The notes under the pieces: model-generated
What the model saw: only the letters and a program-made list of their open reading frames with translations
What the model was told of the DNA's origin: nothing
Databases searched by the model: none
Made by a program: the position numbers and the translations under genes
Source: a phage
Reading direction: 5' to 3' (one strand)
Length of the DNA: 728 nucleotides
Sequence record: AF056256.1
In this document: in pieces, positions 1 through 728 of the stretch
How positions within the stretch are numbered: position 1 is the stretch's first letter
Layout: each line of letters starts with the position of its first letter

Positions 1-39
1 ATCCCCTTTATGCAGGTTCNAATCCTGTCACCTCGGCCA
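1..39 (+). tRNA. 3' portion of a tRNA gene (anticodon-stem 3' strand/variable region, T-arm, acceptor 3' strand, discriminator, encoded CCA); 5' half lies upstream of the window; isotype not determinable
   Basis: Seen in sequence: gcagg(12-16)/cctgt(24-28) form a 5-bp stem (one G-U pair) around the 7-nt loop ttcnaat(17-23), giving the conserved G53-T54-T55-C56-R57-A58...C61 T-arm pattern. This is followed by a 7-nt strand cacctcg(29-35), one base g(36) and cca(37-39), matching canonical tRNA positions 49-76. The anticodon and 5' half are absent, so identity is unknown. Confidence 0.6.
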
Positions 40-62: not shown

Positions 63-68
63 AAAGGA
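63..68 (+). promoter_or_regulatory. Shine-Dalgarno ribosome-binding site for the CDS starting at 74
   Basis: Seen in sequence: aaagga at 63-68, with the AAGGA core at 64-68, leaving 5 nt (aatat) before the ATG at 74-76. This is standard bacterial SD spacing. Confidence 0.6.
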
Positions 69-73
69 AATAT

Positions 74-517
74 ATGTTTAATACTAAAAATATGAAAGAA
101 CTGACTTCTGAGCAAAAAGTAATTCGCACTATTAAACGTTGGGGTATTGGTGCTGTAGTTGGTTTAGCAGGTTTAATCCTAGCTTTTAATTCATATACTA
201 TTGTTTCTGATGGTACGGTTAAAACCCAAACATTTCTAGGTAAAGTAGATCCTAACCCAGTATTACCTGGTTTCCATCTTGTAAACCCATTTGCATCTTT
301 CGATACTTTTAGTACAAAAGATATTGCTGTAAAATTAGATAAACTTCAGGTTCCTAGCCAGGATAAATTTAAATCCACTGTTGAACTGACTGTTATGTTA
401 CAATTTGATGGTTCTAAGGCGCGAATAACCGTATTAACGCAGGCGCCAGGATCAACACTAGACAAATATGTTACTGAAAAATACTGTCACTATCNTGANT
501 TCGGTAATCGTCCCTAA
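74..517 (+). CDS. SPFH/band-7 domain membrane protein (prohibitin/stomatin/HflK-HflC-like), N-terminal part; annotated stop is probably a sequencing artefact and the true CDS likely extends further 3'
   Basis: A 147-codon ORF from the provided track, with ATG at 74 preceded by an SD. AT-rich codon usage is consistent across 74-490. The translation has a basic N-terminus (MFNTKNMKELTSEQKVIRTIKR), then a hydrophobic stretch (WGIGAVVGLAGLILAF), then motifs I recognise by eye as SPFH-like (GTVKTQTFLGKV...PGFHLVNPF...STKD...SQDKFKSTVELTVMLQFDGSKA; compare the stomatin/prohibitin pattern G.v.v..f.g....PG.H...PF.....KD...V...V.YRV.nA). The family call is from recalled pattern, not a search. The TAA at 515-517 follows Ns at 495 and 499; 147 aa is too short for a complete SPFH domain protein (typically about 250-320 aa). 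Confidence 0.8.
   Translation: MFNTKNMKELTSEQKVIRTIKRWGIGAVVGLAGLILAFNSYTIVSDGTVKTQTFLGKVDPNPVLPGFHLVNPFASFDTFSTKDIAVKLDKLQVPSQDKFKSTVELTVMLQFDGSKARITVLTQAPGSTLDKYVTEKYCHYXXFGNRP
140..187 (+). other. Predicted single N-terminal transmembrane helix (signal-anchor) of the SPFH protein
   Basis: Residues about 23-38 (WGIGAVVGLAGLILAF) are uniformly hydrophobic or small. They are preceded by Lys/Arg-rich residues 5-22, which by the positive-inside rule suggests an N-in orientation with the SPFH domain outside the cytoplasm, as in HflK/HflC-type proteins. This is inference from composition only. Confidence 0.55.
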
Positions 518-728
518 GCCCAAATTGTTTGAAGCTAAACCCGCCCANTACAAACCCCATCCCCGGAAATGAAAAATTGCCACGCCTATGGTACCATTAA
601 CCATTTTCNTCCGGANATACTTGCCCGGTATTTGGACNGGTCNAANACCAATTCGGAAAAAAATTATCGNAANGGCCACCCAATCCNGGCGGTCCGGNTA
701 AAGTNCCGCCCNATCCCCTTTCAACCGA
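491..728. other. Low-confidence base-call region (read tail); no reliable feature calls possible
   Basis: Fourteen of the fifteen Ns in the window lie between 495 and 712. Composition shifts from AT-rich to C/G-rich with many doubled bases (cc, gg, aa runs), and every reading frame is broken by stops or X codons. This is typical of degraded Sanger trace ends. Confidence 0.7.

Follow-up and report, generated by a model that had tools for sequence, protein, structure and literature searches.

The DNA analysed here, a window of 728 nucleotides, is most likely (with a probability of about 0.8) a low-quality read from a T5-like phage, which holds the end of a tRNA-Arg(UCU) gene and the first two thirds of an orthologue of T5.080 from phage T5 and ORF trn 1.1 from phage BF23. 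The product would be a 315-aa SPFH protein without a partner, encoded last in an early unit ordered promoter, RNAX, tRNA-Arg and SPFH gene. Several corrections were gained in the process: the stop codon of the ORF in the window is artefactual, no partner gene was found, the "lipoprotein" label given to this family is wrong, and a rationale based on lysogeny does not apply. The broader point is that a well-conserved, single-gene SPFH protein is exchanged among several virulent enterobacterial phage families and appears dispensable in one T5 screen.

Source and quality of the read

When the window was compared to 50,697 phage records by megablast, 430 records matched. The best matches, Escherichia phage vB_EcoS_VAH1 (95.2% identity) and BF23 (94.5%), span positions 5-539, beyond which the matches stop. 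Over the same positions, more than 400 T5-like genomes share 94-95% nucleotide identity, with tRNA-Arg directly upstream of the gene, and in each the match covers the tRNA-Arg and a CDS labelled SPFH, "lipoprotein" or "transmembrane protein". The suggestion made from the letters alone that the gene could be phage cargo is borne out by this origin from a T5-like phage. Pairwise alignment to BF23 gave only two nucleotide substitutions over positions 5-420. After approximately position 420, single-base deletions appear, followed by repeated gaps of 1-6 bases from alignment column 457 and dropping identity; 14 of the 15 Ns in the window also lie after position 494 (span 495-712). This pattern points to a single-pass read from a T5-like phage (Tequintavirus), the quality of which collapsed after some 420 bases. 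ORFs listed beyond position 458 on either strand are artefacts of the degraded read. The following features were assigned:

1..39, + strand: 3' part of tRNA-Arg(UCU), comprising the T arm, the 3' strand of the acceptor and the encoded CCA (alignment to BF23)
65..68, + strand: ribosome-binding site AGGA, equivalent to the annotated site of BF23 ORF trn 1.1 (L001 955-958)
74..420, + strand: reliable 5' part of the SPFH gene, codons 1-116 (BF23 alignment, tblastn, Pfam)
421..728, + strand: degraded read tail over the SPFH gene, nominal codons ~117-218, with indels and 14 Ns

Positions 5-39 align to the BF23 tRNA-Arg gene (L001 855-929), called tRNA-Arg(tct) by ARAGORN, with zero mismatches, and Rfam reported a 5'-truncated tRNA match at positions 1-36 (15 bits). 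ARAGORN found no tRNA in the window itself because the gene is cut by the window edge. All matches in the Rfam 'evalue' scan of the window were sub-threshold, and those to CRISPR-DR49 and PVT1_5 were dismissed as chance (19 and 15 bits versus gathering scores of 41 and 60).

The ORF at 74..517 (+ strand, 147 aa, ATG start) is present, and it begins where BF23 ORF trn 1.1, a CDS of 948 nt and 315 aa, is annotated to start. Mapping the BF23 protein onto the window with tblastn gave 91% identity over residues 1-137, with D104E as the sole mismatch before residue 117; codons 1-116 therein cover a K/R-rich tail, predicted to be cytoplasmic, the membrane helix (residues ~24-43) and the first half of the SPFH domain. 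Since the translation agrees with the BF23 protein to residue 116 and is frameshifted after it, the stop at 515-517 and residues 117-147 result from frameshifts in the read. The start of the ORF and its reading frame to residue 116 were correctly placed by the sequence-only reading, while its end coordinate has to be abandoned; the true gene, at 948 nt (315 aa), would end approximately 290 nt past the window.

Assignment to the SPFH/band-7 family

The ORF at 74-517 is a fragment of a real SPFH/band-7 protein gene. Profile searches were significant for Band_7 (PF01145) with both forms of the protein: the 147-aa fragment matched over residues 52-111 (27.8 bits, E 3.2e-6; gathering cut-off 23.6), and the full-length BF23 orthologue over residues 52-225, covering profile positions 13-176 of 176 (64.2 bits, E 2e-17). 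Both also matched PHROG 200 (phrog_200), the fragment at E 9e-29 and the full-length protein at E 1.7e-86. Sequence searches of the PDB identified E. coli QmcA (8z5g; E 1.8e-6) and prohibitin-2 (8.6e-5) as well as prohibitin-1 and an archaeal stomatin, with HflK and HflC absent at E <= 1. No match was obtained in NCBIfam, and no PADLOC family (PADLOC-DB models) matched at E <= 0.1. Together with the AlphaFold2 and Foldseek results described below, these matches uphold the initial assignment to an SPFH/band-7 protein with an N-terminal membrane anchor.

The gene is already known as T5.080 or BF23 ORF trn 1.1. High identity and a place directly downstream of tRNA-Arg(UCU) were found in dozens of Tequintavirus genomes, and the BF23 protein (YP_009646896) is 99.7% identical to that of T5. 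The T5 gene carries the locus tag T5.080 in NC_005859, and its product is given in T5 record AY587007 as "putative transmembrane protein; IPR001107: band 7 protein" (AAX12012). SPFH/Band 7 matches were listed in 2006 by Nolan et al. for the homologues RB43ORF139c, 44RRORF098c and Aeh1ORF064c (PMC1524935).

Gene neighbourhood and the search for a partner gene

The curated order in BF23 is promoter P16-17, a stable RNA ("RNAX"), tRNA-Arg, ORF trn 1.1, a single-chain interruption and the bidirectional terminator ter1, beyond which three convergent ORFs of 64, 138 and 326 aa are found. The layout is the same in T5, where the SPFH gene is immediately followed by two rho-independent terminators and "major single-stranded nick 3, 32.6%". 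In both phages the terminators and nick site lie within ~40-70 nt of the end of the gene, and our own scan recovered a consensus-like promoter at the annotated place and a GC-rich hairpin with a T-run 36 nt past the stop codon. The SPFH gene thus closes its transcription unit, being followed immediately by a terminator and a nick.

The sequence-only reading had expected a partner gene, encoding an NfeD-family protein or a protease, just outside the window. What follows instead are terminators, a nick and convergent genes, and Pfam scans of the BF23 convergent ORFs, which include the next ORF downstream, and of the upstream genes detected neither an NfeD nor a protease domain. NfeD neighbours were likewise missing from five further phage contexts (three scanned with Pfam, two judged by annotation) and two bacterial contexts. 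In Miller, the SPFH gene has rI antiholin and DUF5856 protein genes upstream and an NMN adenylyltransferase/Nudix gene downstream; in Proteus phage P59, it follows genes for RtcB and an ATPase and precedes one for a cREC_REC protein; and in 44RR, it lies between thymidine kinase upstream and pilin-like (N_methyl) and DUF1190 proteins downstream. According to their record annotation, the neighbours in Vibrio phage helene 12B3 and Aeromonas phage Ahp1 are all hypothetical proteins. The neighbourhoods differ throughout these T4-like, Grimontviridae, Aeromonas and Vibrio phages and the bacterial chromosomes. In the contexts examined, there was no adjacent, co-transcribed NfeD-family gene (PF01957 OB-fold, with or without a ClpP-class protease domain) as in SPFH-NfeD operons of the QmcA-YbbJ or stomatin-STOPP type. 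A tblastn search of the 50,697 phage records with E. coli YbbJ returned a sole match, to a mislabelled record of 1.7 kb that clearly stems from E. coli, and the T5 re-annotation (PMC11879866) lists no NfeD.

A paralogue pair as formed by HflK and HflC was not found, as phage genomes gave one matching place each for the SPFH protein (tblastn), with no second SPFH gene next door. Adjacent genes of ~320 aa in Vibrio phage helene 12B3 were considered as an HflK/C-like pair and rejected, being unrelated to each other. A detached partner was also considered in T5.042, a ClpP-class protease of T5 encoded beside the holin and endolysin (CLP_protease, 34 bits), with a match to NfeD1b_N that remains sub-threshold (18.9 bits versus a cut-off of 40). 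Its relatives occur mostly in T5-like, Vibrio, Pseudomonas and Rheinheimera phages, and none was found in the T4-likes of Aeromonas, Enterobacter, Cronobacter and Citrobacter in which the SPFH gene occurs. T5.042 was rejected as a conserved NfeD-type partner, as it lies 18 kb away, is without the NfeD OB-fold or membrane segments, and has another phylogenetic distribution.

Predicted structure and membrane topology

The Kyte-Doolittle profile of the protein peaks at residues 25-43 (IGAVVGLAGLILAFNSYTI), within a single N-terminal hydrophobic helix at residues ~24-43. An AlphaFold2 monomer model built from a 39-sequence family alignment reached modest confidence (mean pLDDT 75.6, pTM 0.43) and comprises a helix (12-39), a beta/alpha domain (41-192), a 75-residue helix (195-270) and a second helix (273-290). 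The C-terminal tail was modelled with low confidence yet is strongly conserved, with Y291, G293, V295, P296, T298 and G301 invariant or near-invariant, which is consistent with a cap that depends on oligomerization. Foldseek comparison to the PDB returned subunits of SPFH cages for all top matches, namely erlin1/2, prohibitin, HflK/C, stomatin, QmcA and flotillin (probability 1.00; ~260-310 columns, E 8e-15 to 1e-8), followed by the major vault protein, and BFVD contained many further SPFH proteins from phages and giant viruses. Kyte-Doolittle, AlphaFold2 and Foldseek together present the architecture of an SPFH protein: a membrane anchor, an alpha/beta fold and a long coiled-coil helix.

Orientation was predicted by counting K and R within 15 residues of the membrane helix in the 39 family members. 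The mean is 3.3 on the N-terminal side versus 1.3 on the C-terminal side, and the N-terminal side is higher in 35 of the 39; the same count for QmcA, which is without any N-terminal tail, gave 0 (N) and 1 (C). Applied by itself, the positive-inside rule suggests a cytoplasmic N-terminus and an SPFH domain in the periplasm, which would be the orientation of HflK/C and the reverse of that of QmcA. A periplasmic SPFH domain, as predicted, also fits with the missing NfeD partner.

Distribution in phages and bacteria

A search with the 137-aa fragment gave only 8, mostly truncated, proteins and was repeated with the full-length BF23 protein, which was found by tblastn in 742 phage records. Identity is 90-100% in T5-like phages of Escherichia, Salmonella and Shigella, 60-78% in T4-like Straboviridae (Miller, KP15-like Klebsiella phages, Cronobacter GAP161, Aeromonas 44RR), 71-76% in Grimontviridae and 7-11-like phages, and 23-33% in more distant Vibrio and Aeromonas phages. 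Going by these matches, T5-like, T4-like and 7-11-like phages share the SPFH protein with further lytic phages. A scan that took one genome for each prokaryotic species added 61 cellular loci, including chromosomal copies in Providencia and Morganella (56-60% identity) and copies in Methylophagaceae, Methylococcaceae and other, mostly gammaproteobacterial, genomes (31-42%). The neighbours in Morganella morganii encode a TetR regulator, a zinc alcohol dehydrogenase and an HlyD-family protein, and the order on a Methylophagaceae chromosome is accD-folC-SPFH-FAD oxidoreductase. As the gene stands alone without NfeD in bacterial chromosomes too, the family is therefore a single-gene SPFH subfamily. 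Its size was gauged with phmmer against 1.84 billion cluster representatives, and the 924 relatives at E <= 0.001 (34 at E <= 1e-30) delineate a subfamily of modest size and clear definition. A rough neighbor-joining tree, which carries no support values, placed the Morganellaceae copies inside the phage clade with the other bacterial genes as sister.

Fitness and the T5 accessory region

T5.080 was classed as "Not Fit" in the dCas13d knock-down (CRISPRi-ART) screen of T5, with 7 guides, a mean fitness of -4.28 and p ~0.85 (PMC11879866, supplement 16). Lower expression of T5.080 therefore appears to cause no measurable harm to T5 on laboratory E. coli, a result for one host and from a knock-down, which does not prove dispensability. 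Viable deletions of the T5 tRNA region (30661-38625 and 29191-32442; PMC11464382) end ~1 kb before the SPFH gene (~39.7-40.7 kb) and, stopping short of it, are uninformative on whether T5.080 is dispensable. From the same tRNA/accessory region, T5 tRNA-Lys neutralises PARIS (PMC11464382) and T5.076 is listed as subverting retron defence (PMC11879866, supplement 16). The location of T5.080 is compatible with a conditional, host-specific role, which is not in itself evidence for one. Literature searches for the function of phage SPFH proteins, or for a link to defence, lysis or FtsH, returned genome-annotation mentions only.

Proposed role and alternative explanations

By analogy with every solved SPFH assembly, the T5.080 protein may form a homo-oligomeric cage that would fence off a patch of the inner membrane, where it would be anchored with its N-terminus in, its C-terminus out and its SPFH domain towards the periplasm. 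Its role could be an accessory one, of benefit in certain hosts or conditions only, and would most likely consist in sequestering a host membrane protein (e.g., FtsH) or in stabilising the membrane, or phage membrane proteins, during infection. FtsH is the obvious candidate client by analogy; specific similarity to HflK or HflC was not seen. That a phage-built, periplasm-facing cage shields the membrane or captures an inner-membrane client of the host, be it FtsH or a defence effector, as a conditional counter-defence or lysis-control factor, is put forward here as a speculative proposal with rather low odds. If true, phages would have a counter-defence or lysis-control mechanism of a type that has so far not been described in them. 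What remains of interest is why a single-gene SPFH protein, which probably faces the periplasm, has been conserved and has spread horizontally among virulent enterobacterial phages.

An alternative that we consider possible, if unlikely, is a membrane-protective, lysis-timing or counter-defence factor needed in certain hosts only, with a cage that would stabilise the inner membrane or phage membrane proteins (holin/antiholin), or would blunt abortive-infection effectors that depolarise the membrane. The gene adjoins the T5 genes with reported anti-defence roles (tRNA-Lys against PARIS; T5.076), is found in T4-like phage Miller two genes downstream of rI, which encodes an antiholin, and is shared horizontally by unrelated lytic phage families at 55-80% identity, as is typical of 'moron' genes; its "Not Fit" class on a laboratory strain points the same way. 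However, this case is purely contextual, as PADLOC gave no match and the literature searches no phage SPFH link to defence or lysis, and proximity to rI is not conserved: in 44RR, the annotated lysis inhibition regulator lies ~3 kb downstream and other genes flank the SPFH gene.

SPFH cages regulate AAA+ membrane proteases, as HflK/C does FtsH and prohibitin the m-AAA protease. The phage protein might accordingly mimic HflK/C, with its cage enclosing or displacing host FtsH and altering the turnover of substrates (LpxC, sigma-32, SecY or phage membrane proteins) in favour of lytic growth. The architecture and predicted periplasm-facing, type II topology are like those of HflK/C, and Foldseek matches to FtsH-HflK/C structures extend over ~300 columns (E 1e-11 to 1e-8). 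Against this, sequence similarity to HflK or HflC specifically is not detectable, the gene is single and not one of two paralogues, the T5 screen showed no fitness effect, and the cellular relatives stand amid unrelated housekeeping genes and not with ftsH or hflX, which leaves the mimic improbable. The connection to lambda CII and lysogeny drawn in the sequence-only reading has no bearing on this case, as T5-like phages are strictly lytic.

Far less likely, and already largely refuted, is a module of the QmcA-YbbJ type, in which a partner of the NfeD family or a protease linked to NfeD would be encoded directly beyond the window. QmcA is the closest solved relative by sequence, qmcA overlaps ybbJ in E. 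coli, and T5 does encode an unlinked ClpP-class protease, T5.042, with its sub-threshold NfeD1b_N match. Nevertheless, a terminator follows the SPFH gene and convergent genes lie beyond it, NfeD (PF01957) was not detected in the neighbours scanned, by tblastn with YbbJ or in the T5 re-annotation, and the predicted topology is opposite to that of QmcA; T5.042 itself is too remote (18 kb), is without OB-fold and membrane segments, and is absent from the SPFH-bearing T4-likes named above. Finally, a phage lipoprotein, such as a superinfection-exclusion lipoprotein like T5 Llp, is what the label on phrog_200 and many RefSeq records would imply, but it can be practically dismissed, as a lipobox requires an invariant cysteine whereas the BF23/T5 protein has zero, most of the 39 aligned family members also have none, a conserved cysteine after the hydrophobic segment is found in none of the 39, and the SPFH fold starts directly after that segment; the inherited "lipoprotein" name is therefore wrong.

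Comparison with known systems

The top full-length structural matches are erlin1/2 and prohibitin1/2 (9vvj, 9o9u, 8rrh, 9o9z; E 8e-15 to 1e-11, TM ~0.5-0.6), which have an N-terminal anchor like the phage protein and, as is predicted for it, their bulk on the non-cytosolic side. In contrast to the phage protein, they are hetero-oligomers of eukaryotic organelles, with 14-20% identity and no functional connection. HflK/HflC around FtsH (7vhq, 7wi3, 9cz2) resemble the phage protein in their N-terminal anchor, periplasmic SPFH domain (predicted for the phage), long CC1 helix and C-terminal cap region; the phage has one gene instead of a heteromeric pair and no significant sequence match to either, and the analogy is structural and topological only.

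E. coli QmcA (YbbK), solved in its SPFH-NfeD complex with YbbJ (8z5g), is the best solved match by sequence (residues 42-266), with the same order of helix, SPFH domain and coiled coil at similar length. Unlike QmcA, the phage protein is without an NfeD partner gene, has a K/R-rich N-terminal tail and is predicted to have the opposite orientation, and identity between the two is only ~19%. The SPFH genes of gammaproteobacteria (Methylophagaceae, Methylococcaceae and others; Providencia, Morganella) share length and architecture, at 34-41% identity in the methylotrophs and others and 56-60% in Morganellaceae, and are also single and without NfeD, but are cellular and located among housekeeping neighbours.

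T5.080/BF23 ORF trn 1.1 is the orthologue, with 94-95% DNA identity, 115 of 116 reliable residues in common, and the same tRNA-Arg(UCU), ribosome-binding site and start codon. The differences amount to the conservative D104E and two silent or near-silent SNPs, the rest being read error, and the read adds this one conservative substitution to a known gene.

Transcriptional context and read quality

The window opens with part of a phage tRNA gene whose BF23 counterpart shares a promoter with the SPFH gene:

Window 1-39: 3' part of a tRNA-Arg(UCU) gene with encoded CCA, separated by 34 nt from the start of the SPFH gene downstream
BF23 region (L001) 964-1911: ORF trn 1.1, the SPFH gene

In BF23, the single promoter P16-17 serves both tRNA-Arg and the SPFH mRNA, and release of this mRNA must therefore require tRNA processing. 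Bases 2-4 of the window differ from BF23 (ATCC in the window versus AATT in BF23), which is probably a read-start error. At the other end, read quality collapses over window 421-728, where 14 Ns and many indels of 1-6 bases were found relative to BF23. The ORFs of this segment are all artefacts, among them the minus-strand ORF of 88 aa at 458-724. PHROG 200 and many RefSeq records name the SPFH protein a "lipoprotein", a label that has no support, as the BF23 ORF trn 1.1 product contains no cysteine and consequently has no lipobox.

Genes and elements around the SPFH gene in BF23 and T5, and the unlinked T5 protease T5.042

BF23 (L001) 71-854: RNAX, a stable RNA, upstream of the SPFH gene
BF23 (L001) 1956 and 1982-2025; T5 region (L003) 5974-6050: bidirectional terminator and fixed single-strand nick, directly 3' of the SPFH gene
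T5 (L003) 7941-8459: T5.076, a Toprim-like protein named "DNA primase", encoded some 2 kb away from the SPFH gene
T5 region (L071) 1076-1675 (T5 21075-21674): T5.042, a ClpP-class protease of 198 aa, adjoining holin and endolysin

This nick ("major nick 3, 32.6%") belongs to the set of single-strand interruptions that T5 DNA carries at fixed sites. Within RNAX, L001 280-353 in particular contains a tRNA-like element called as tRNA-Ser(act) by ARAGORN, and a pseudo-tRNA is annotated in the matching area of T5. Counter-defence genes are present around the SPFH gene, since T5.076 has the entry "subverts retron-mediated defense" (score Semi-Fit; PMC11879866 supplement 8). T5.042 matched the CLP_protease profile with 34 bits and NfeD1b_N with a sub-threshold 18.9 bits, and was, like the SPFH gene T5.080, "Not Fit" in the CRISPRi-ART screen (PMC11879866). 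As a conserved SPFH partner it was rejected, its distribution being unlike that of the SPFH gene.

Relatives in T4-like phages and Morganellaceae

Citrobacter phage Miller region (L004) 2759-4427: stretch with the rI antiholin and SPFH genes

In the T4-like phage Miller, the rI antiholin gene is followed downstream first by a gene for a DUF5856 protein and then, in second place, by the SPFH gene. Different genes flank it in 44RR, where an annotated lysis inhibition regulator is found about 3 kb downstream.

Several database records (OR847704.1, OR848805.1, OR845725.1 and NZ_JBHSCL010000010.1) look mislabelled. Short records titled "Listeria phage LM 4-11-1 / 4-14-1" contain a T5-like SPFH gene, the "Escherichia phage ECO95 1-6-1" record contains a ybbJ-like (NfeD-family) gene with 84% identity to E. 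coli YbbJ, and a 178-kb contig of the Flagellimonas marina assembly (NZ_JBHSCL010000010.1) resembles a T4-like phage genome.

In Providencia and Morganella, chromosomal SPFH genes whose products share 56-60% identity with the phage protein have non-phage neighbours (TetR, ADH, HlyD). Because these copies nest within the phage clade in a rough NJ tree, transfer of the SPFH gene from phage to Morganellaceae is suggested.
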